Assembly (NCBI GenBank): GCA_020724905.1
Contig: DYGB01000001.1
Coordinates: forward strand, 1,866-65,865
Reading direction: 5' to 3'
Source of the DNA: Candidatus Paceibacter sp.
Lineage (GTDB): Bacteria; Patescibacteriota; Minisyncoccia; UBA6257; JAGOQP01
Length of the DNA stretch: 64,000 nt
Every line of letters starts with the position of its first letter. Positions within the stretch are counted from its first letter, which is position 1. The notes beneath the pieces are model-generated. The model searched no databases, was not told the origin of the DNA, and saw nothing but the letters and a program-made list of their open reading frames with translations. The translations under genes and the position numbers were made by a program. Below, in pieces: positions 30,928 through 43,538 of the stretch.

Positions 30928-32379
30928 TTATTTGTCTTTCCCTAATGCCTTTCGAATAACGTCTTTTAACTCTTTGACTGCTGTAGGTTTCTTTTCTCTT
31001 TCCTTGTGAGGTTTTTTCTTCCTCTCATCTTGTTTTAGTGTTTCAGCGAGAGACCGCTCCCCCTGTCGCGCAATCATCTCAGCAACACGCTCATGACTTC
31101 CAGCATATTCTTCCTGAATCTTTTTTTCAACCTCTCCTCGAGGAAGGGTAAACTTGTCACGAGAGTATTCCAAGATAACGTCATAGAGTGATTGTTTGGG
31201 GAGCGGTGGTGGAGGCAGTGTTCGAGCTGAGAAAGGACGAGATGACACCCCATCAATCATCAAACGGATATAGATATAGGTATTAGGAAGATTCACAAAA
31301 TCACTCGCCTCAAATTCCTCAAAGAATTCTTTTTCTAAAAATTCTGCATCATCTGCTCCTACCCGAAATACAATCATTGTTCCCACGTTACCAAAAATAG
31401 CAGATTTCACCCGTTCATTGTCATCAAGCTGATCAATATACTGGTGAGCAAGAATCAAACATAATCGATACTTTCGTGCCTCAGAAAGAATCGTTGCAAA
31501 TGATTCTGTTGCAAAGTTCTGAAACTCATCAACATAGAGATAAAAATCACGTCTCTCTTCTTGAGGAGTATCAACACGAGACATCGCAGCAAGCTGAAGT
31601 TTCGTAATAACCATAGCTCCAAGAAGCGCGGAGTTATCTTCACCAATTTTTCCTTTTGAAAGATTCACCACAAATATTTTCCCCTCATCCATGATACGTC
31701 GTGCATCAAATGATGAGTGTTCTTGTCCGATAATATTTCGAATCAACGGATTGGAGACAAACTGTCCCACCTTGTTCTGGATTGCAGCAACGGCCTCTGT
31801 TTCAAGTCGTTGTGTATAGCGAGCAAACTCATCAGCCCAGAATGAACGAACGATAGGGTCCTGAAGATTATCAACAATATTTTTCCGATACTCTTTATCA
31901 GAAAACATCTTCATAATCCCGAGCAATGTCGAATTAGGATACTCCAGCAATGCAAGAAGCGTATTGTTAAGAATATATTCCATGCGGGCAGACCAGGCAT
32001 CAGGCCATATCTTTTTAAACACAGACATAAGTCCAGAAGCAACCAAATGTCTTTGTTCAAAATCAACACGTTCAAGTGGATTAAATGCGATGGGGTAATT
32101 TGTATCAGCAGGGTTAAAATACACTACATCATTAACCCGCTCTTCAGGAATAAAGTGAAGTACTTCTTCAGCAACCTCACCATGTGGATCAACAATACAG
32201 ACTCCCTTCCCTGCTTTGATATCAGAAAGAACCATATTCAAAAGCAAGGTACTTTTCCCAGTACCTGATTTCCCAATGACATACATATGCTGTCTACGGT
32301 CAGCAGTTTTTACACCAAATATCCGTTCTTCATTTCGAAACGTTGTTTTCCCAAGGTGTAGAATATCTTTTTCATCCAT
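30928..32379 (-). CDS. P-loop ATPase of the FtsK/HerA/TraG superfamily (AAA_10/DUF87-like, T4SS coupling-protein-like).
   Basis: Walker A (YVIGKSGTGKSTLLLN), CIVDPHGE, Walker B (LYVDEFQNF) and ARKYRLCLILAHQYIDQL. Confidence 0.6.
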   Translation of the reverse strand: MDEKDILHLGKTTFRNEERIFGVKTADRRQHMYVIGKSGTGKSTLLLNMVLSDIKAGKGVCIVDPHGEVAEEVLHFIPEERVNDVVYFNPADTNYPIAFNPLERVDFEQRHLVASGLMSVFKKIWPDAWSARMEYILNNTLLALLEYPNSTLLGIMKMFSDKEYRKNIVDNLQDPIVRSFWADEFARYTQRLETEAVAAIQNKVGQFVSNPLIRNIIGQEHSSFDARRIMDEGKIFVVNLSKGKIGEDNSALLGAMVITKLQLAAMSRVDTPQEERRDFYLYVDEFQNFATESFATILSEARKYRLCLILAHQYIDQLDDNERVKSAIFGNVGTMIVFRVGADDAEFLEKEFFEEFEASDFVNLPNTYIYIRLMIDGVSSRPFSARTLPPPPLPKQSLYDVILEYSRDKFTLPRGEVEKKIQEEYAGSHERVAEMIARQGERSLAETLKQDERKKKPHKEREKKPTAVKELKDVIRKALGKDK

Positions 32380-32394
32380 AGCTTCACTATACCA

Positions 32395-33597
32395 CTATTC
32401 AAGTGGCAAATTAACTGGAGGCGTACCTTTACGAGAATCAATCTTTCCAAGACGAGGAGCACGAACTGATGAGAGAGGAAAATGAAACAGTGTTGCCAAC
32501 TCTTCTGAAGAGAGTATAGGGAACGTTTCATCAACCAAACGATTCGTATATCCAAACCGTCGTGTCTTAAGATAATCAAAGAGAATACGTTTTTTCCGTA
32601 ACATCGTTGTTTTCTTTATCTTAGGAAACAACTTCATCTTGATTCCTCCTGCAACAGTAATCAATTTGTCAGGACGAAGACCATTCATGTGCTGTGTATT
32701 GAATTGTTGCAGTGATCCCATAACTGATGAAATGTTAAGAAAGCTAAAACTATCTTTCCGATCAATATAGACGAATCGAAGATTAGCCTGGAACACATGT
32801 TTTGATGCTTTGTTCTCAATTGCTCTTATCACATCCCTATCTCCTCCTGTCATATCAGATTTTCCTTCTTCATCTTTCTTCTTTTCAATAATAGCTTTAA
32901 TTTCTTTTTGGGCGTCATCTTTGATAGAGACACCTGTTGCAGGACCCGTTGGACTTATCAAAAGCTGTATACATACCATCTCATCATCTTTCAGTTTTGA
33001 CATTGCTTCAAACAATGGAGCAAGAGGATCAATACGTTCTTCCTCCTTTGAAAGTTCATGGAAAAAATCATGATACGTACGAATAGGATACACACTGTTT
33101 TTCACAAGGGTAAATCCTGATCCCCAAAGATCATAGGTATCATCAGGAAGTGTTGCGGGAAGATCATCCATGTAGTCTGTTGTCTCAGATATTTCAGCAT
33201 CAGGATATTGGGCATAGAGTGCTGATTCTACAAGATTTCGATAATCTTTTGGTGTACGAACATAAAAAGAAATACCTCCTCCTCGAGCAACCATCTCAAA
33301 AGAAATCCATATGTCTACTTTTCCATCCAGATACTTGTTTAACGCAGGAATTCCAAATGAATAAATACCAAATAAGCTCGCAAATACTTGCTCCATTGAT
33401 TTTGGGCCTCGTGCCTCCCCATGAGGAATACGAATCTGTAATATATTCCATTCAATTCCTTCTATAAACAAATATCGTTTATAAAAAAGCCGCATTTTCC
33501 AACAGAGAACAGCGGCAAAAATAGGAACAACAATCCACAGAGCAACAGAGAGTGCTTTATATACACCGACAATAAGAATATCCTCTAAAAACGGCAT
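32395..33597 (-). CDS. Membrane-anchored hypothetical protein (two N-terminal TM helices plus a ~330-aa soluble domain), the partner of the downstream ATPase.
   Basis: The N-terminal hydrophobic segments are seen directly. The gene is packed tightly between the HTH gene and the ATPase gene. Confidence 0.4.
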   Translation of the reverse strand: MPFLEDILIVGVYKALSVALWIVVPIFAAVLCWKMRLFYKRYLFIEGIEWNILQIRIPHGEARGPKSMEQVFASLFGIYSFGIPALNKYLDGKVDIWISFEMVARGGGISFYVRTPKDYRNLVESALYAQYPDAEISETTDYMDDLPATLPDDTYDLWGSGFTLVKNSVYPIRTYHDFFHELSKEEERIDPLAPLFEAMSKLKDDEMVCIQLLISPTGPATGVSIKDDAQKEIKAIIEKKKDEEGKSDMTGGDRDVIRAIENKASKHVFQANLRFVYIDRKDSFSFLNISSVMGSLQQFNTQHMNGLRPDKLITVAGGIKMKLFPKIKKTTMLRKKRILFDYLKTRRFGYTNRLVDETFPILSSEELATLFHFPLSSVRAPRLGKIDSRKGTPPVNLPLE

Positions 33598-36866: not shown

Positions 36867-38144
36867 TTACTTCCGTGCAACAACAATTAAATCAGACACA
36901 TTAAGACATTTCTGTTTAATAGTAACATGACCACCTCGTTCTTTAAAAAAGTGGTATGAATTATGAGATTTTACATATGAAGGATCAATATCCTTTGCAT
37001 CAGCACTACATCCAATCGCTCCTGCAACAGGAACATTATCTTTCCCATCAGAAGCAATACTCCCCACACAGATATCTCCTTTAAGAGACTGTTTGGAAAG
37101 TTCAGAAAGTGCTCCTAGTACTACCTCCTGATTTCTTCCCCCTTCTCCACCTATGCATCCTGATACTAAGCTCTCCCCTCCAAATAGATACATTTCTCCT
37201 GGACGAATTGTAGTGAGGTATGGAGAAAGAAGCTTCGATGCCTCCCCCTGAAATGCAGTAGAGATAATTTTTGTTTGAAATCCTTCTTCTCTTCCCTTCT
37301 CAAGCATCGCAACAAGAGCATCTTCATTACATGCTAATAACAATGCACGAGATCTTTCAAAAATACGTTCATCTTTTACTGTTTCTTGTAAAAAAGGAAT
37401 CGCATCATGACATTCATATTTCTCAAGAATCGCCACCGCATCTTCTTTTCGTGACGCATCAAAGACGCTTGGACCAGAAGCAACAGTCCCTAAATCATTT
37501 CCACAGACATCTGAAACAACAAGGGATAGTATTGTTGCAGGATACGCAGCTTTGGCAAGACCACCTCCTTTCACAGAAGAAAGGTGTTTTCTGACAATAT
37601 TAATTTCTCTAATCTGAGCCCCTTTGTTGGTAAGTCGTTTAAATAAATCGCTCCCTACATCTTTTTCTTTTTCATCTCCACAGAGAAGAGAAGATCCTCC
37701 ACCAAGGATAAGAAAAATAACTAAATCATCCTCACTACATGTTTCAAGAACAGTAATAATGTGTTGTGTTGCCTTAATATTAACATCAGAAGGATGAGGA
37801 TGTGTTCCCTCATACACCTGAACCATCTCATGAGTAGAGATACTAGAAGCATATCCCTTTACATCAAGTGCGTAAGCTTCATCTACCCCCTCAACGTGGC
37901 CAGAAAAAAGAGAAACAACTCCCCGAGCACCCTTCCCAACCCCTACCACAACAACTCGTTTAAAATATTTTGTATCGTAGATATGATCGTCCCCTTTAAT
38001 AGAAAAAGAATGGTCACGAACATGAATCTTTTGAGGAATAATATGCTCCATATCAATCGCCTCAAGTCCAGCATCAAAAACACGAATAACCGATGATCGT
38101 AAATCATCTTCCCTTACTCCTTCCCTCTCTATAATATAGGACAT
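36867..38144 (-). CDS. Glycerate kinase of the MOFRL family (DUF4147 plus MOFRL).
   Basis: VVVGVGKGARGVV, LLCGDE..., and glycine-rich C-terminal motifs typical of MOFRL glycerate 2-kinases. Confidence 0.65.
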   Translation of the reverse strand: MSYIIEREGVREDDLRSSVIRVFDAGLEAIDMEHIIPQKIHVRDHSFSIKGDDHIYDTKYFKRVVVVGVGKGARGVVSLFSGHVEGVDEAYALDVKGYASSISTHEMVQVYEGTHPHPSDVNIKATQHIITVLETCSEDDLVIFLILGGGSSLLCGDEKEKDVGSDLFKRLTNKGAQIREINIVRKHLSSVKGGGLAKAAYPATILSLVVSDVCGNDLGTVASGPSVFDASRKEDAVAILEKYECHDAIPFLQETVKDERIFERSRALLLACNEDALVAMLEKGREEGFQTKIISTAFQGEASKLLSPYLTTIRPGEMYLFGGESLVSGCIGGEGGRNQEVVLGALSELSKQSLKGDICVGSIASDGKDNVPVAGAIGCSADAKDIDPSYVKSHNSYHFFKERGGHVTIKQKCLNVSDLIVVARK

Positions 38145-38145
38145 A

Positions 38146-41100
38146 TTATTTCTTTACCCCTATTGTCATCGATGTTCCTCTCAACGAAAGTTCTTTTTTG
38201 GCATCAACAGACGTGCCTGGTTCATACACAAATGCAACTGCATGAACTTCTTTTTTAAGTATACGCTCATGATTCTTCAAAAACGAGATAACATCATGGT
38301 GCCCCTGTATATGAAGGGTAATCTCATCATGAAATGCATATCCTGCATCTTGTCGAAGTCCTTGTACGAAACGAATAAATTCACGAATATCTCCTTCATC
38401 TTTAAGGTCTTCACTTAATGTCGTATCAAGAACGAAGTCTTCTTCTTGAGATACTCCAAAAACAATGCGCTTCACATTCACCTCATCTTGGAGAAGCGTA
38501 ATAAGTTGTGATGCATAGGTACCAGTCAATTTCTTTCGTTTACATGAAAGTGTTGCAAGTGGTTGACGCACCTTTATCTGAGCGCTTGCTCGTTGTGCAA
38601 GCACTTCACTTGCAGCATCCCTAACCCACTGCATATCAGCGATAAGTTTTTTGTAACGTGTATCAAAGCCATGTTCTGGCCATCCTTCAAGGTGAACTGA
38701 ATCAGCTCCTTTGATGGTGTAGAGATTTTTAAGTGACTGATAGAGCGCCTCTGAGAAAAATGGAATAAAAGGAGCGGTAAGTTTACTCAATGAAAGTAAT
38801 ACATAACCAAGTACTGAGGATGTCATCTCCCATTCTTTCTTTGTCTCAGGTTTTTGTAATCGTCGTCGAGAACGACGGATATACCATCGAGACATGTCAT
38901 CAACAAATGTTTCAACAGCAGATGAGGCACGGGTAATATCATACTCATCCATAGCATCTTTTACGATCTGCTCTGTCTCTCCCAATCGTGCCAAAATCCA
39001 TACATCAAGCACATGCTCACTTTCAGGTGCAGCGGAAAGAGAAAGTTTCTTCTTTCCATATAGTTCAAGGAATGAAAATGAGTTGTACATAACAAGCAAG
39101 AATCGTCTCAAGATATTCCCCACATCAGCTTCATCAAAATTCTTTGGTTCTCCTGGAGCATTGATAGTAAAGAAATACCAACGAATTGCATCGATACCAT
39201 ACTTTTCAATAAGTGCCCATGGGTCAACAACATTTCCTTTTGACTTAGACATTTTCTGTCCATTCTTATCAAGCACCAATCCAAGAGACACCACATTTTT
39301 GTATGGTGTTCCTAGTCCCAATAGAACTGCTGTTGCCATAAGGGTATAGAACCATCCACGTGTTTGATCAATTCCCTCAGAAATAAAGTCTGCAGGAAAT
39401 CCATGTGGCTTTTTACCCTCTGCCTTAAAAGGAAAGTGGGTACTTCCATACGGCATTGAACCAGAATCAAACCACACATCAGCAACATCAGGAACTCGTT
39501 TCATTACCTCTCCAGAATCAGAACGTAGGAAAACCTCATCAACATAAGGACGATGCATATCAATCATACCAAGCGCATCAATAGGGAGGTTATCAGAAAC
39601 ACAAGATACATATCCTCCCGTAGGAATAAAGTGTTTCTTTTCTTTCTTTATCATTTCCTCCATTGATAGATGTTCCATGACAGCACGAAACATACGAAGC
39701 GTATCTCCATGACTTACCACTGCAATGGTCTTGTCTGGATATTTCCTCTGCATCTCTTTGTAAAATTCTGTTACCCGTACACGAACATCATGTAGTGATT
39801 CAGCTCCCTCAGGAGCATCCATAACAGGATCGATATCTTTTTGAGAAAAGAATCCATAAAATTCAGAAATAGCTTTATGTGCATATATTCCTGCTTCTCG
39901 TTCTTTAATACGCTCATCAACAATGACACGCTTTACCCCAAGTTCCCGAGAAAGAAGCTCAGCTGTTTGTTTCGTTCGAGTATAAGGAGAAGAGACGATA
40001 ATATCAACATTCTCTTGTACAAGCTTTTTGGCTAAATGAGCAACTTCTTCTTTTCCTTTCTCGGTAAGACGGGAGGTATATTCTTTTGTTTCCTTCCCTG
40101 AAGCCCACCATCCTTCAACATTGGCACGAGCTTCTCCATGACGAATAAGAAGGAAGGTATTACTATGAGCACGATATGTCGTGAGATCTTCTAAGCTCTT
40201 TACCACCCGAATTTCTCCTGTATCAGATTTCCAGATAGGAAGTGGCGTACCCCAGTATCGTTCACGTGAAATTGCCCAATCTTTTGCCTGCGCAATCCAT
40301 TCTCCAAAACGCCCCTCTTTAATATGTGCAGGAACCCATGATACTCCTTTATTTGCTTTAAGAAGTTCTTTACGAAGTGAAGACACTTCAAAAAACCATG
40401 CTCGACGAGCCCAATAGATAAGAGGTGAAGAACAACGCCAACAAAATGGATATTCATGATCGCCGTGACCTCCCTTAAGAAGCAATCCCTTTTCTTCAAG
40501 GTATGCACTAATAACACTATCAGCCTCCTTTATCGGCTTTCCTTCTCCAATGCATCCTTCTGCTACTTTCCCATCAGCGGTAATGGTCTGAGGAAGTATA
40601 TGTTCTTCCTTAAGACCATCAGGAAATACAAGTGAAAAATCATCCTCTCCAAAACTTGGAGCAATATGAACAAGACCAGTCCCCTCATCGGTAGAAACAA
40701 AGTCAGCGCCACGAACATAATAGCGATCAAATGGTAAAGATACCTCTCCTTCATACGGAACAGCGGGAAGATACTCCCATCCAACCATCTCGCTTCCTTT
40801 CTTTTTTACCTTACTTGTTTCTTCATATCCTTCAGGAAGCTTATGAGCCCATACCTTCTTTCCTTCAAGAGAAAACTGATGATATATCACCTTTGGATCA
40901 AGGGCGATAGCAACGTTTGCAGAAAGTGTCCATGGTGTTGTCGTCCACACTAATAAAAATTCATTCTTCTTCCCCTTGAGAGGAAAAAGTACGTAGACCG
41001 AAGGATCACTCACCGTTTGATATACTCCTGGTTGTCCTAACTCATGGTTTGCAAGTGCTGTTTGACAGCGATAACAATACGGAGTCACTTTATATGATTC

Positions 41101-41616
41101 TTTTAAATACCCTCTTTCTGCGATACGAGAAAACACCCACCACAGACTCTCTATATATTCAGGAGCATAGGTAACATATGCATTATCAAGATCAAGCCAG
41201 TATCCAATGCGTTCGGTAAGTTTCTCCCACTCATCTTTGTAGCGAAAGATAGATTCTCGTGCTTTGTTATTAAACGTATCAATACCAATACGCTCAATGT
41301 CTTTTTTTGTTTGTATCCCAAGGCTTTTTTCAGTTTCTATCTCAATAGGGAGTCCATGTGTATCCCACCCTCCCTTTCGAGGAACACGGTACCCTTGCAT
41401 TGTTTTGTACCGAAGAAAGACATCTTTCATAGCACGAGCAAGAATATGGTGTATTCCAGGACGTCCATTCGCATACGGAGGACCTTCCCAAAAATAAAAT
41501 TCCTCTCCCTCTGTATTGTGAGAAAGGCTTTTTTCAAAAATCTTTTTCTTCTTCCATAACGAAAGAATGTTTTCTTCTACTTCCGATGCATTAAATGCTT
41601 TAAGTTTTTCTAACAT
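38146..41616 (-). CDS. ileS: Isoleucyl-tRNA synthetase with a complete histidine-phosphatase (PGAM-like, RHG) domain inserted between the WxISRxRYWGxP motif and the KMSKS region.
   Basis: HIGH region (PPYANGRPGIHH), GWDTHGLPIE, the editing domain (TTTPWT...GTGLVHIAPSFGEDD) and KMSKS. The ~190-aa insert is LLIRHGEARAN...SHGDTLRM. Confidence 0.9.
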   Translation of the reverse strand: MLEKLKAFNASEVEENILSLWKKKKIFEKSLSHNTEGEEFYFWEGPPYANGRPGIHHILARAMKDVFLRYKTMQGYRVPRKGGWDTHGLPIEIETEKSLGIQTKKDIERIGIDTFNNKARESIFRYKDEWEKLTERIGYWLDLDNAYVTYAPEYIESLWWVFSRIAERGYLKESYKVTPYCYRCQTALANHELGQPGVYQTVSDPSVYVLFPLKGKKNEFLLVWTTTPWTLSANVAIALDPKVIYHQFSLEGKKVWAHKLPEGYEETSKVKKKGSEMVGWEYLPAVPYEGEVSLPFDRYYVRGADFVSTDEGTGLVHIAPSFGEDDFSLVFPDGLKEEHILPQTITADGKVAEGCIGEGKPIKEADSVISAYLEEKGLLLKGGHGDHEYPFCWRCSSPLIYWARRAWFFEVSSLRKELLKANKGVSWVPAHIKEGRFGEWIAQAKDWAISRERYWGTPLPIWKSDTGEIRVVKSLEDLTTYRAHSNTFLLIRHGEARANVEGWWASGKETKEYTSRLTEKGKEEVAHLAKKLVQENVDIIVSSPYTRTKQTAELLSRELGVKRVIVDERIKEREAGIYAHKAISEFYGFFSQKDIDPVMDAPEGAESLHDVRVRVTEFYKEMQRKYPDKTIAVVSHGDTLRMFRAVMEHLSMEEMIKKEKKHFIPTGGYVSCVSDNLPIDALGMIDMHRPYVDEVFLRSDSGEVMKRVPDVADVWFDSGSMPYGSTHFPFKAEGKKPHGFPADFISEGIDQTRGWFYTLMATAVLLGLGTPYKNVVSLGLVLDKNGQKMSKSKGNVVDPWALIEKYGIDAIRWYFFTINAPGEPKNFDEADVGNILRRFLLVMYNSFSFLELYGKKKLSLSAAPESEHVLDVWILARLGETEQIVKDAMDEYDITRASSAVETFVDDMSRWYIRRSRRRLQKPETKKEWEMTSSVLGYVLLSLSKLTAPFIPFFSEALYQSLKNLYTIKGADSVHLEGWPEHGFDTRYKKLIADMQWVRDAASEVLAQRASAQIKVRQPLATLSCKRKKLTGTYASQLITLLQDEVNVKRIVFGVSQEEDFVLDTTLSEDLKDEGDIREFIRFVQGLRQDAGYAFHDEITLHIQGHHDVISFLKNHERILKKEVHAVAFVYEPGTSVDAKKELSLRGTSMTIGVKK

Positions 41617-41701: not shown

Positions 41702-42142
41702 ATGAGCTTTGCAGACAATAAAAAAGCATATCATGACTATCACATCCTCTCAGAATATGAAGCGGGCATTCTTTTATCTGGACAAGAAGTAAAATCCCTC
41801 AGAAACAAGAGGGGATCACTTCAAGGAGCATACGTTAAAATCTATGGAGGTGAACCATGGCTCCTTAACATGCACATTCCACCCTATCAAGAAAAAAATG
41901 CACCTCCTCAATATGCCCCGGATCAGCCCAGAAAACTTCTTCTTCACAAAAAAGAACTTGATGAACTCCGTGGGCAAAGTGATCAAAAAGGATTGACAAT
42001 TATTCCTCTTTCATTGTATAGTAAGGGTCGTTACATCAAAGCAAAGATAGGAATCGGACGAGGAAAGAAGAAAGCAGATAAGCGAGAAACAATAAAGAAA
42101 CGAGATGTAGAAAGAAAGATACGACGAACACTACAACACTAG
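41702..42142 (+). CDS. smpB: SsrA-binding protein SmpB.
   Basis: YHDYHILSEYEAGILLSGQEVKSLR...IPPY matches the SmpB family. Confidence 0.85.
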   Translation: MSFADNKKAYHDYHILSEYEAGILLSGQEVKSLRNKRGSLQGAYVKIYGGEPWLLNMHIPPYQEKNAPPQYAPDQPRKLLLHKKELDELRGQSDQKGLTIIPLSLYSKGRYIKAKIGIGRGKKKADKRETIKKRDVERKIRRTLQH

Positions 42143-42477
42143 GGGGGCGTCAGTTTCGACAAATGCACTCCTTAAAAAATTGCGAGTTGAGTTGAACATC
42201 TCATAAATCTGTTCACCATTTTATCTGCAAACAAAACTGCAGCTCCAGCACTTGCGTACGCGTAAGTGTTGGCTCTCGACATAAGCTCGAGACATCAGCC
42301 CTCAATGTCTGATGCGAGGATTACTGGTGTTATATATCTCAGACCCTCCTACGGAACTGGATAAGCCGTAGTACAGGTAAACTATCCACCTATTGAGGTG
42401 TCAGACGACATTCTGACTATGCTCGTAGATTGTTTTTTAAGATGTTTTTGGACGGGAGTTCAATCTCCCCGCCTCCA
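42143..42477 (+). ncRNA. ssrA: tmRNA (ssrA), with a putative tag reading frame GCA AAC AAA ACT GCA GCT CCA GCA CTT GCG TAC GCG TAA (ANKTAAPALAYA).
   Basis: It starts GGGGGCGTCAGTTTCGACA immediately after the smpB stop. The 3' end GGACGGGAGTTCAATCTCCCCGCCTCCA forms a T-arm and a tRNA-Ala-like acceptor stem. An intrinsic terminator follows. Confidence 0.8.
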
Positions 42478-42482
42478 CAAGA

Positions 42483-43016: not shown

Positions 43017-43538
43017 ATTCCTCTGAATCGAAAGTTCGTTATCAACGAACGAATCCGAGCTTCATCCTTGCGCGTTATTGATGCAGAAGGAGAAAATAGA
43101 GGGGTCTGCACAAGAGAAGAAGCTCTTGCGCTCGCACAAGAACAAGGAAAAGATCTCATCATTATTAGTGATCAGGTTGATCCTCCTGTTGCCCGTATTA
43201 CAGACTTTGACAAATTCAGATATCAACACGAAAAACAGGAAAAAGAAAAGAAAAAGCAGCAAGCACAAAAAGGAGCAGGAGAAGTAAAACATATTCGCTT
43301 CTCAGGACGTGCTGCTGAAAATGATTTAAAAACAAAAATACGCCAAGTAGAGAAGTTTCTAGAACATGGAGCAAAAGTAGAGCTCATGCTCGTTTTAAGG
43401 GGAAGAGAGAAGGCAAATAAGACATGGGCATATGAACGACTTGACCATTTCCTCTCATTAATAGAAACTGAGTACAAAATAGTATCACCAGCGAAAAAAG
43501 GAGGACGAGGAATCATCGCACAGATAGTAAAAAAATAG
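43017..43538 (+). CDS. infC: Translation initiation factor IF-3. The start is probably non-AUG (ATT at 43017 or ATA at 42987). The ORF track begins at TTG 43068 and truncates the conserved N-terminus.
   Basis: The in-frame upstream sequence ...NRKFVINERIRASSLRVIDAEGENRGV matches the IF-3 N-terminal region. There is no in-frame ATG between the stop at 42972 and 43068. Confidence 0.75.
   Translation: MPLNRKFVINERIRASSLRVIDAEGENRGVCTREEALALAQEQGKDLIIISDQVDPPVARITDFDKFRYQHEKQEKEKKKQQAQKGAGEVKHIRFSGRAAENDLKTKIRQVEKFLEHGAKVELMLVLRGREKANKTWAYERLDHFLSLIETEYKIVSPAKKGGRGIIAQIVKK

Follow-up and report, generated by a model that had tools for sequence, protein, structure and literature searches.

The stretch of Candidatus Paceibacter sp. 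DNA analyzed here (the window: 64,000 nucleotides, GenBank assembly GCA_020724905.1, contig DYGB01000001.1, positions 1,866 to 65,865) carries on its reverse strand an uninterrupted open reading frame (ORF) of 1156 codons, ileS, which encodes a type-2, eukaryote-like isoleucyl-tRNA synthetase (IleRS) with a histidine-phosphatase domain inserted in its chain. The protein matches the NCBIfam ileS model TIGR00392 at 823.5 bits (cut-off 621.4), and its closest solved structures are type-2 enzymes, those of T. thermophilus (1ILE, E=3e-210) and P. megaterium (IleRS2; 8C8U, E=1e-199, with values of 1e-197 to 5e-201 across the 8C8U-8C9D series), the match to the type-1 structure 1FFY being weaker (1e-86). 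Pfam assigns to it a tRNA-synt_1 domain split in two by His_Phos_1, followed by Anticodon_1 and DUF5915. The editing motif WTTTPWTL (aa 224-231) is conserved, and K788, M789, S790 and K791 of the KMSKS loop are invariant in 92 sequences. From this conservation, we infer that the window protein is a working type-2 IleRS capable of aminoacylation.

A previous reading of the window, made from its letters without database searches (the sequence-only reading), had placed a complete branch-1 histidine-phosphatase domain in frame within this synthetase and not in a neighboring gene. This is borne out by the uninterrupted ORF, by a strong match to the profile that the reading had proposed as a check (His_Phos_1, PF00300; E=2.1e-32, 112.8 bits against a cut-off of 21.7, and E=6e-34, 117.8 bits for the excised block alone), and by alignment to 1ILE. 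In that alignment, window residues 478 and 685 correspond to residues 476 and 488 of 1ILE, ~195 residues standing in place of a linker of ~12 residues, a difference well outside what chance would give. In canonical type-2 IleRS, this position, for which a short linker or zinc knuckle had been named, is occupied by a short linker between the halves of a zinc knuckle. All of the motifs quoted in the reading are present (WAISRERYWGTPLPIW, RHG at aa 492-494, SHGD with H636, HRPYVD and KMSKS), and the coordinates it gave to the block, 39590-40175, locate it properly but are one base short at each end, the in-frame block being 39589-40176 (aa 481-676). The full domain, as delimited by a family hidden Markov model (HMM) and an AlphaFold model, extends over aa 481-684 together with its short linkers of ~8 and ~30 residues (Table 1), and the G+C content is unchanged across it. 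The protein is also longer than usual, as had been pointed out, by ~195 residues with respect to Parcubacteria IleRS devoid of the insert (~958-1000 aa).

In P. megaterium IleRS2, the HUP core is composed of residues 40-168 and 513-632, with CP1 (which includes the editing domain) and CP2 lying between them (PMC10485003). Since window residues 10-484 align to residues 10-480 of 8C8U, these published boundaries locate the insertion point, hereafter site A, in CP2 by alignment, about 25-30 residues ahead of the re-entry of the chain into the core at DVWFDSG and between the two halves of the zinc knuckle. Conservation was analyzed in two sets of homologs, 87 divergent ones drawn from different 50%-identity clusters and 124 closer ones. 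Among the divergent homologs, the downstream anchor of the insert, HRPYVD, keeps H688 and D693 in 86/87 and P690 in 80/87, and most family members retain the cysteines of the zinc-knuckle consensus (C-x-x-C ... C-x-C), with Cys at columns 464 and 466 in 57/87 and 52/87, respectively. The window protein has Ser and Thr at these two columns, and because its flanking cysteines are replaced by KSDTGE and LRSDSGE, the IleRS of the window organism has probably lost the zinc site that flanks the insert.

The conservation of the catalytic Arg/His/His/Glu set in relatives had likewise been proposed as a check. The set is kept in 81 to 87 of the 87 divergent homologs, with R492 present in 86, H493 in all 87, R547 in 85, H636 in 86 and E572 in 81, the other six having Asp at this last position. 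N499 (71/87), E606 (86/87) and R614 (84/87) are also kept, and R492, H493, R547, E572, E606, R614 and H636 are all invariant in the 124 closer homologs. Comparison with an 87%-identical relative (locus L004), at a synonymous divergence (dS) of about 0.7-1.0, gave ratios of nonsynonymous to synonymous substitution (dN/dS) of 0.126 for the insert, 0.077 for the N-terminal part of IleRS and 0.103 for its C-terminal part. AlphaFold2 predicts the domain block with a mean pLDDT of 95.0 and a pTM of 0.92, and the full protein with a pLDDT of 91.7 and a pTM of 0.85, the insert and both linkers scoring 88-97. In Foldseek comparisons, the model resembles small histidine phosphatases with a probability of 1.00, TM of 0.72-0.78 and E of about 1e-13 (6S2Q, PspA 4IJ5/4IJ6, the riboflavin-pathway HFP 9MMH, GpgP 4QIH, PhoE and CobC), and sequence search of the PDB agrees with this result.

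Table 1. Features of the ileS gene and of neighboring genes (window coordinates; aa, residues of the IleRS protein)
Feature	Position	Strand	Basis
ileS, type-2 (eukaryote-like) IleRS with phosphatase insert, 1156 aa	38146..41616	-	ORF, TIGR00392, 1ILE/8C8U, Pfam
Class I signature, non-canonical GIHH (G-x-H-H, not H-x-G-H), aa 54-57	41446..41457	-	sequence
IleRS motif WAISRERYWGTPLPIW, aa 447-462, upstream anchor of site A	40231..40278	-	aligns to 1ILE up to residue 476
First half of zinc knuckle, degenerate (KSDTGE; family consensus C-x-x-C)	40213..40230	-	family columns
Inserted histidine-phosphatase domain with short linkers, aa 481-684	39565..40176	-	family HMM, AlphaFold2
Pfam His_Phos_1 (PF00300) match, aa 489-655	39652..40152	-	E=2.1e-32, 112.8 bits
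RHG: R492, H493 (predicted phospho-accepting His), G494	40135..40143	-	conservation
R547, second phosphate-binding Arg, S-P-x-x-R-T-x-Q-T-A motif (SSPYTRTKQT in window)	39976..39978	-	conservation
E572, predicted general acid/base Glu	39901..39903	-	conservation
H636-G637, second catalytic His, SHG motif (SHGD in window)	39706..39711	-	conservation
HRPYVD (aa 688-693), downstream anchor of the insert, then degenerate second half of zinc knuckle, LRSDSGE (39508-39528)	39508..39555	-	sequence, alignment
DVWFDSG strand (aa 713-719), re-entry of the chain into the Rossmann/HUP catalytic core	39460..39480	-	sequence; PMC10485003
KMSKS signature loop, aa 788-792	39241..39255	-	sequence
Glycerate-kinase-family gene (DUF4147+MOFRL, 425 aa)	36867..38144	-	
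smpB	41702..42142	+	
tmRNA gene, tag AAPALAYA	42143..42480	+	Rfam, 94.7 bits
IF3 gene	43068..43538		
TrwB/TraG-like type IV coupling ATPase gene	30928..32379	-	
Gene for 400-aa protein without Pfam match	32395..33597	-	

By every sequence and fold criterion, therefore, the inserted phosphatase is predicted to be catalytically competent, and the gene to encode a bifunctional protein that combines IleRS with a complete branch-1 histidine phosphatase. The suggestion that the block might be a degenerate structural module can be dismissed because its catalytic residues are invariant in the 124 closer homologs and its dN/dS is 0.13. A related possibility is that the domain senses a phosphorylated ligand or buttresses CP2, tuning the synthetase allosterically without turnover. 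Its location in the catalytic half, near the KMSKS loop in sequence, would suit such a role, and the loss of the zinc-knuckle cysteines in the window protein could mean that the domain has taken over a structural function there. Binding, however, would not need an invariant catalytic set that includes the nucleophilic His and the acid/base Glu; moreover, the free-standing orthologs described below retain the same catalytic residues, and most family members still have the zinc-knuckle cysteines. We consider this possibility very unlikely.

The domain had been described as PGAM-like, which holds for its fold but not for its family. Its best NCBIfam match when excised is a model of an archaeal phosphoglycerate mutase of the dPGM type (NF038349), which stays below threshold (80.3 against 225 bits), as do TIGR01258 (34.4 against 81.7) and the other gpmA models (at most 47 against 305-409). 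The NCBIfam cut-offs of named small phosphatases are not reached either (TIGR03162 for CobC, 76 against 163; PspA, 78 against 350; SixA, 32 against 74.5; GpmB, 47 against 261; PhoE-type acid phosphatase likewise), and the free-standing orthologs also reach no NCBIfam cut-off for a named enzyme. The motif following the catalytic Glu is L-R-E-I-x-F-G-x-F-x-G, which we take to be the phosphatase pattern, the corresponding dPGM motif presumably being E-R-H-Y-G. Judged by the available family cut-offs, the insert is thus no phosphoglycerate mutase; it belongs to the histidine phosphatase superfamily and looks active.

A glycolytic dPGM, interconverting 3-phosphoglycerate (3PG) and 2-phosphoglycerate (2PG) and maybe linked to the glycerate-kinase-family gene next downstream of ileS, would agree with the fold class, with the archaeal dPGM model being the best NCBIfam match and with the identity of that neighbor. 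We nevertheless judge it highly improbable. In addition to the unmet cut-offs and the phosphatase-type motif after Glu, the domain comprises ~190 residues, an insert-bearing relative (L003) encodes a separate iPGM 5 kb away, and the glycerate-kinase neighbor recurs in the 87%-identical L004 and not in L002 or L003. The link to glycerate kinase through 2PG/3PG was dropped on account of this restricted recurrence, and the notion of the domain as the sole phosphoglycerate mutase is disfavored by the cut-offs and by the iPGM of L003. A tblastn search of the 64-kb window detected no iPGM or second His_Phos, a result confined to the window and not extending to the whole genome.

A whole-protein search was performed against 1.84 billion cluster representatives (50% identity), and the best 150 matches were examined. 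The insert is present at the same site in 85 of these 150 representatives, with a distance of 193-245 residues across the insertion point, as compared with 20-69 residues in the remaining 65. The distribution is bimodal, with nothing between 69 and 193 residues, indicating that the insert is not the universal IleRS feature that would have refuted the sequence-only reading. In a 90%-clustered collection, PF00300 occurs together with IleRS domains in all of the 120 best full-length matches, the named sources of which are Paceibacterota, Colwell-, Lipton-, Harrison- and Nealsonbacteria, Minisyncoccota and Parcubacteria GW2011_GWA1_60_11. The insert is hence neither unique to the window genome nor universal in IleRS, and it marks a large family in the Patescibacteria.

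This recurrence bears on the possibility of an artefact or a selfish element, be it a chimeric assembly, two genes joined by a frameshift or a mobile insertion of the intein type, for which nothing speaks beyond the general possibility of such events in metagenome assemblies. The same protein is found on a 181-kb contig (in NCBI and IMG) and on other contigs, relatives that are 84-87% identical have 1156 and 1158 residues and are hence of the same length or within two residues of it, the 87%-identical one aligning without gaps, and hundreds of independent assemblies carry the insert. Furthermore, G+C content is constant, the domain evolves under purifying selection, and Pfam finds only His_Phos_1 in the insert, with no Hint or splicing domain, for which the linkers are too short. 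An intein, a mobile element and a chimera were accordingly ruled out on recurrence, purifying selection, base composition and Pfam content, and the chance that the arrangement is an artefact or selfish element of any kind appears negligible.

Both parts of the protein belong to known families, and full-text searching of the literature found no description of a histidine phosphatase within IleRS, in agreement with the initial impression that the combination of the two in one chain is undescribed. Members of the family have been public since about 2015-2016 with automatic annotation only (e.g., KKW47148.1 and UniRef100_A0A1G1Z6H8), under the names "Isoleucine--tRNA ligase", "class I tRNA ligase family protein" and "hypothetical protein". 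Because the NCBI pipeline often uses the latter two, a genome survey by product name could score insert-bearing organisms as lacking IleRS. One insert-bearing fragment (P0001, 388 aa) is labeled Sedimentisphaerales (Planctomycetota); since its contig is so short (1198 bp), a binning error is more likely than a true occurrence outside the Patescibacteria.

The same phosphatase also occurs as a free-standing protein. A profile built from 31 inserts (A1) retrieves free proteins of ~190 residues at 158-201 bits, generic members of the family scoring at most 128, and one of the free proteins so retrieved is annotated as Paceibacterota. Neighbor-joining analysis of the domain groups 127 of 128 inserts with 23 free proteins, apart from 96 generic proteins. 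For one of the free proteins (P0416), an ileS without insert (958 aa) starts 9 bp downstream of its gene, and the gap between the called phosphatase and ileS genes is 9 bp in L008-L010. The neighborhood of P0416, in which genes for L20, L35 and IF3, smpB and argS are followed by ileS, is common to the insert-bearing ileS of L003, and the order argS, phosphatase gene (hp), ileS is found for P0415 as well.

We then scanned metagenomes with a second profile (A2), built from 13 free proteins, and classed the 80 loci obtained using HMMs for both IleRS halves and for the phosphatase. The phosphatase lies within ileS in 30 of these loci. In 43 it is free, with ileS at most 100 bp downstream on the same strand and often overlapping, and in 4 more ileS begins 0.2-1.4 kb downstream; 2 loci are uninformative because of a contig end, and 1 (L064) has no ileS within 7 kb. 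Of the 48 informative loci with a free gene, 47 therefore have it upstream of, and on the same strand as, an ileS that lacks the insert, usually in the order argS-hp-ileS, and the phosphatase is linked to ileS, either inserted or adjacent, in 77 of 78. In most loci of both the inserted and the free kind, argS lies upstream on the same strand. These data define a Patescibacteria-specific phosphatase subfamily that is genetically tied to ileS.

To locate the insertions within IleRS, the insert HMM was run on 288 full-length sequences, seven unusually long ones were scanned with Pfam, and seven were aligned to an insert-less reference. Three insertion sites were identified. Site A, between WxISRxRxWG and DxWFDSG, is used by the window protein and the great majority of the others. 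Site B, located after DSGSMP..HYPF and before PADFIxEGxDQTRGWF, is used by P0214 and by P0252 (PCI25629.1, from Candidatus Peregrinibacteria, present on three contigs, the longest of 260 kb). Site C, ~75 residues after KMSKS and just ahead of the anticodon-binding domain, is used by P0178 (267-kb contig) and, for its second copy, by P0185. Sites B and C thus flank the KMSKS loop in sequence, one on each side. The genes with inserts at these two sites lie in unrelated neighborhoods without argS; therefore, local adjacency alone does not explain those insertions. Furthermore, none of the 288 proteins and 80 loci showed the phosphatase fused end to end with IleRS at either terminus, even though this would be the easiest product of adjacent genes. 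What these analyses add to the sequence-only reading is that the phosphatase is genetically tied to ileS across the Patescibacteria, whether encoded upstream in the same operon or inserted at one of three sites. This repeated coupling, as operon partner and at several insertion sites, argues for a phosphatase function tied to IleRS.

Several duplications and fusions of the domain were also encountered. A tandem double insert at site A is found in the P0242 cluster (P0242, P0288 and P0289), which has three members on several contigs, and two tandem free copies precede ileS at 6986-8164 of L074 and 6986-8180 of L092 (both on the forward strand), with 0.57-0.70 substitutions per site between copies. 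In L091 (5375-7561, forward strand), a single 729-residue ORF joins a complete ArgRS (Arg_tRNA_synt_N, tRNA-synt_1d and DALR_1) to a C-terminal phosphatase and is directly followed by ileS; because this is a single instance, the fusion may be due to a sequencing frameshift. Finally, P0238 (1395 aa, on an 11.6-kb ENA contig) has the phosphatase at site A and a second insertion of ~200 residues after DCWFESGSMPYA, in which aa 747-863 give a borderline match to the P-loop kinase-like family AAA_18 (28.9 bits, cut-off 29.4). If a synthetase combined such a kinase-like module with a phosphatase, it would be reminiscent of the repair enzymes known as polynucleotide kinase-phosphatases.

When mapped on a tree of the cores of 55 full-length IleRS from the retrieved loci, the inserted and free-adjacent states require 5 changes, as compared with a mean of 18.4 and a minimum of 12 for shuffled labels, and the midpoint root falls in the free state. 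This fits mostly vertical inheritance, with the main insertion at site A having arisen from an ancestral hp-ileS operon, the direction being that of a crude tree. A crude neighbor-joining tree of 138 distant representatives needs 24 gain or loss changes and does not resolve the history, because the cores are about as similar within the insert group (identity 0.447) as between groups (0.435). Insert and core distances are weakly correlated in a Mantel test (r=0.15, reached by 2 of 2000 permutations). In a domain tree of fused and free phosphatases, the two forms are interleaved, the domain being too short to give a direction from one to the other.

The explanation that we tentatively favor is that the phosphatase serves isoleucine charging. 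It would have started as the free gene of ~190 codons directly upstream of an insert-less ileS and would have become part of the IleRS chain in a large clade of Parcubacteria that includes the window organism. From a position by the KMSKS half of the synthetic site, it would clear away a phosphomonoester whose presence otherwise prevents charging. The histidine phosphatase family operates with a phosphate pocket made of Arg-His, Arg and His, a Glu acid/base and a phospho-histidine intermediate. In the window protein, H493 would attack a phosphate held by R492, R547 and H636, E572 would protonate the leaving group, and the phospho-histidine would then be hydrolyzed. Because the phosphatase is repeatedly coupled to ileS, we give a role in aminoacylation, exercised by the removal of a charging-blocking phosphate, as opposed to one in central metabolism, a chance only just short of even.

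Two candidate substrates are suggested by analogy. HipA and HipT are kinases that shut down GltX and TrpS through phosphorylation of a serine in the KLSKR or KMSKS loop (PMC6581861), and toxSAS enzymes add a pyrophosphate to the 3' hydroxyl of the tRNA CCA end, blocking charging until hydrolases restore it (10.1101/2021.04.30.441581). The inserted phosphatase might likewise free the 2'/3' hydroxyls at the 3' end of tRNA(Ile) from a phosphate or pyrophosphate, which we deem unlikely, or act on a phosphoserine of the synthetase itself, for instance in the KMSKS loop, which seems more doubtful still; the remaining weight falls on some other nucleotide or ligand of the IleRS reaction. Ap4A, which had been proposed in the sequence-only reading, is an unlikely substrate for an enzyme of this family because it is not a phosphomonoester. 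A dedicated unblocking enzyme seated by the synthetic site, clearing either the tRNA(Ile) 3' end of phosphate or pyrophosphate or the KMSKS loop of phosphoserine, is on the whole a somewhat unlikely proposal. If true, it would make the synthetase self-repairing, or immune to the kinase or pyrophosphokinase toxins of hosts, competitors or phages. It would also provide the first case of an aminoacyl-tRNA synthetase whose chain includes a phosphatase acting on the synthetase's own substrate or on the synthetase itself, and it would reveal a cycle of tRNA or synthetase phosphorylation in bacteria of the candidate phyla radiation.

Several observations weigh against a role in charging. All of the nearest solved structures belong to phosphatases of small molecules (PspA, glucosyl-3-phosphoglycerate phosphatase, PhoE, CobC and a riboflavin-pathway enzyme), genes may be adjacent within an operon of a streamlined genome for historical and not functional reasons, the free group P0410-P0412 adjoins secA, and L064 is the locus mentioned above that has no ileS nearby. 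The inserts are only mildly basic (mean net charge +2.7), and charge and isoelectric point, taken as a hint of RNA binding, show a slight shift only, which is confounded by Lys-rich proteomes. PADLOC defense models gave no match, in analyses that included no search aimed at toxin kinases or toxSAS. In addition, a tRNA-bound pyrophosphate is not a simple monoester.

Some of these points recur in a second explanation, namely that the domain is a small-molecule phosphatase of the PhoE/PspA/CobC type with a metabolic role, which began as a neighbor of ileS, became inserted in tolerant surface loops and works independently of IleRS, fusion ensuring co-expression and saving regulatory DNA in a very small genome. 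Consistent with this, the best sub-threshold NCBIfam models are, like the nearest structures, all small-molecule enzymes, and some free members reside beside secA or away from ileS. The insertion sites are loops of variable length among IleRS, a GNAT domain is already known within IleRS (NF040702), and the insert evolves faster than the core, with mean pairwise identities of 29% and 45%, respectively. Such a history is harder to reconcile with three independent internal sites, of which two are used by lineages that lack the argS-hp-ileS neighborhood, with the lack of simple end-to-end IleRS fusions, and with the near-exclusive linkage to ileS among informative loci, which would be unexpected for a metabolic enzyme. 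We regard a metabolic phosphatase of independent function as a serious possibility, albeit one whose chances are appreciably below even.

Bacterial aminoacyl-tRNA synthetases are regarded as conserved enzymes, in which insertions serve editing or tRNA binding. Here, a second and unrelated catalytic center resides in the catalytic half of IleRS, is maintained by purifying selection in a large share of the Parcubacteria, arose anew at three sites and has an operon-coupled free counterpart. Under the charging-related explanation, this pattern would imply a phosphate-removal step tied to isoleucine charging, or more widely to ArgRS and IleRS, that lies outside textbook translation, and if the substrate were the tRNA or the synthetase, the architecture would be connected with the phosphorylation of translation components by toxins. 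Should the domain instead be a metabolic phosphatase, the case would still illustrate clearly how a domain has, in nature, repeatedly been inserted into an essential enzyme. One protein, one histidine and a short list of candidate substrates offer a testable entry into the poorly known physiology of the candidate phyla radiation.

Other features of the locus concern the synthetase itself and its neighbors. The swap of the class I signature to GIHH is shared by the relatives, H57 being invariant and H56 kept in at least 90% of 92 of them. The G/AxHH form is associated with mupirocin hyper-resistance in IleRS2 (Brkic et al., PMC10485003), and since GxHH confers it in that enzyme and is conserved in the relatives, the whole Parcubacteria IleRS family appears to carry the hyper-resistance form. 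In the window, smpB is followed without a gap by the tmRNA gene (Table 1), and smpB also lies beside or near ileS in L002, L003, L004, L008 and L009, as do the genes for IF3, L35 and L20 in L003, L008 and L009. On the other side, the glycerate-kinase-family gene begins one base past the ileS stop. Farther away, the neighboring genes for the type IV coupling ATPase and for the 400-residue protein are both conserved in L004, where the counterpart of the latter is labeled DUF8128.

Taken separately, the two parts of the window protein can be compared with known relatives. The small branch-1 histidine phosphatases, such as PhoE/YhfR (1EBB, 1H2E), PspA (4IJ5), mycobacterial GpgP (Rv2419c, 4QIH), the hydrolase 6S2Q, CobC (6NRU) and HFP (9MMH), share with the insert the fold, a length of ~190-210 residues and the Arg-His...Arg...Glu...His set, but they are only 21-26% identical to it and are free-standing, whereas the insert is embedded in, or operon-coupled to, a synthetase. 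Type-2 IleRS (1ILE, 8C8U and the G/AxHH variants) share full-length homology with the window protein, as well as the DUF5915-type C-terminal domain, KMSKS, the editing motif and GIHH; with respect to 1ILE and 8C8U, the window enzyme differs in the ~195 extra residues that form a second catalytic domain in CP2 and in the loss of the zinc-knuckle cysteines.

The likeness to systems that relieve or impose a phosphate block on translation is one of functional analogy only. SAH hydrolases, which undo the toxSAS pyrophosphate on the tRNA CCA end, and the targets of HipA and HipT, in which the KMSKS-type loop of a class I synthetase is phosphorylated, both involve a blocking phosphate that would need removal, and the SAH enzymes are HD-domain proteins, unlike the histidine-phosphatase insert. 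The RNase H/acid phosphatases of the Rv2228c type (NF005567), to which the phosphatase gives one of its best sub-threshold NCBIfam matches, of 76-79 bits (cut-off 326), also join a branch-1 phosphatase to a nucleic-acid enzyme, but in an end-to-end fusion with RNase H as the partner. The nearest parallel in architecture is the IleRS with an N-acetyltransferase domain described by NF040702. The window protein is no member of that family because it scores 255 bits against a cut-off of 1999, and the family differs in that its added domain is a GNAT and lies in the CP1 region (extra residues at ~267-493 of the profile, as judged from the alignments of the window and L008 proteins); it nonetheless provides a precedent for a foreign enzymatic domain lodged within a bacterial IleRS.

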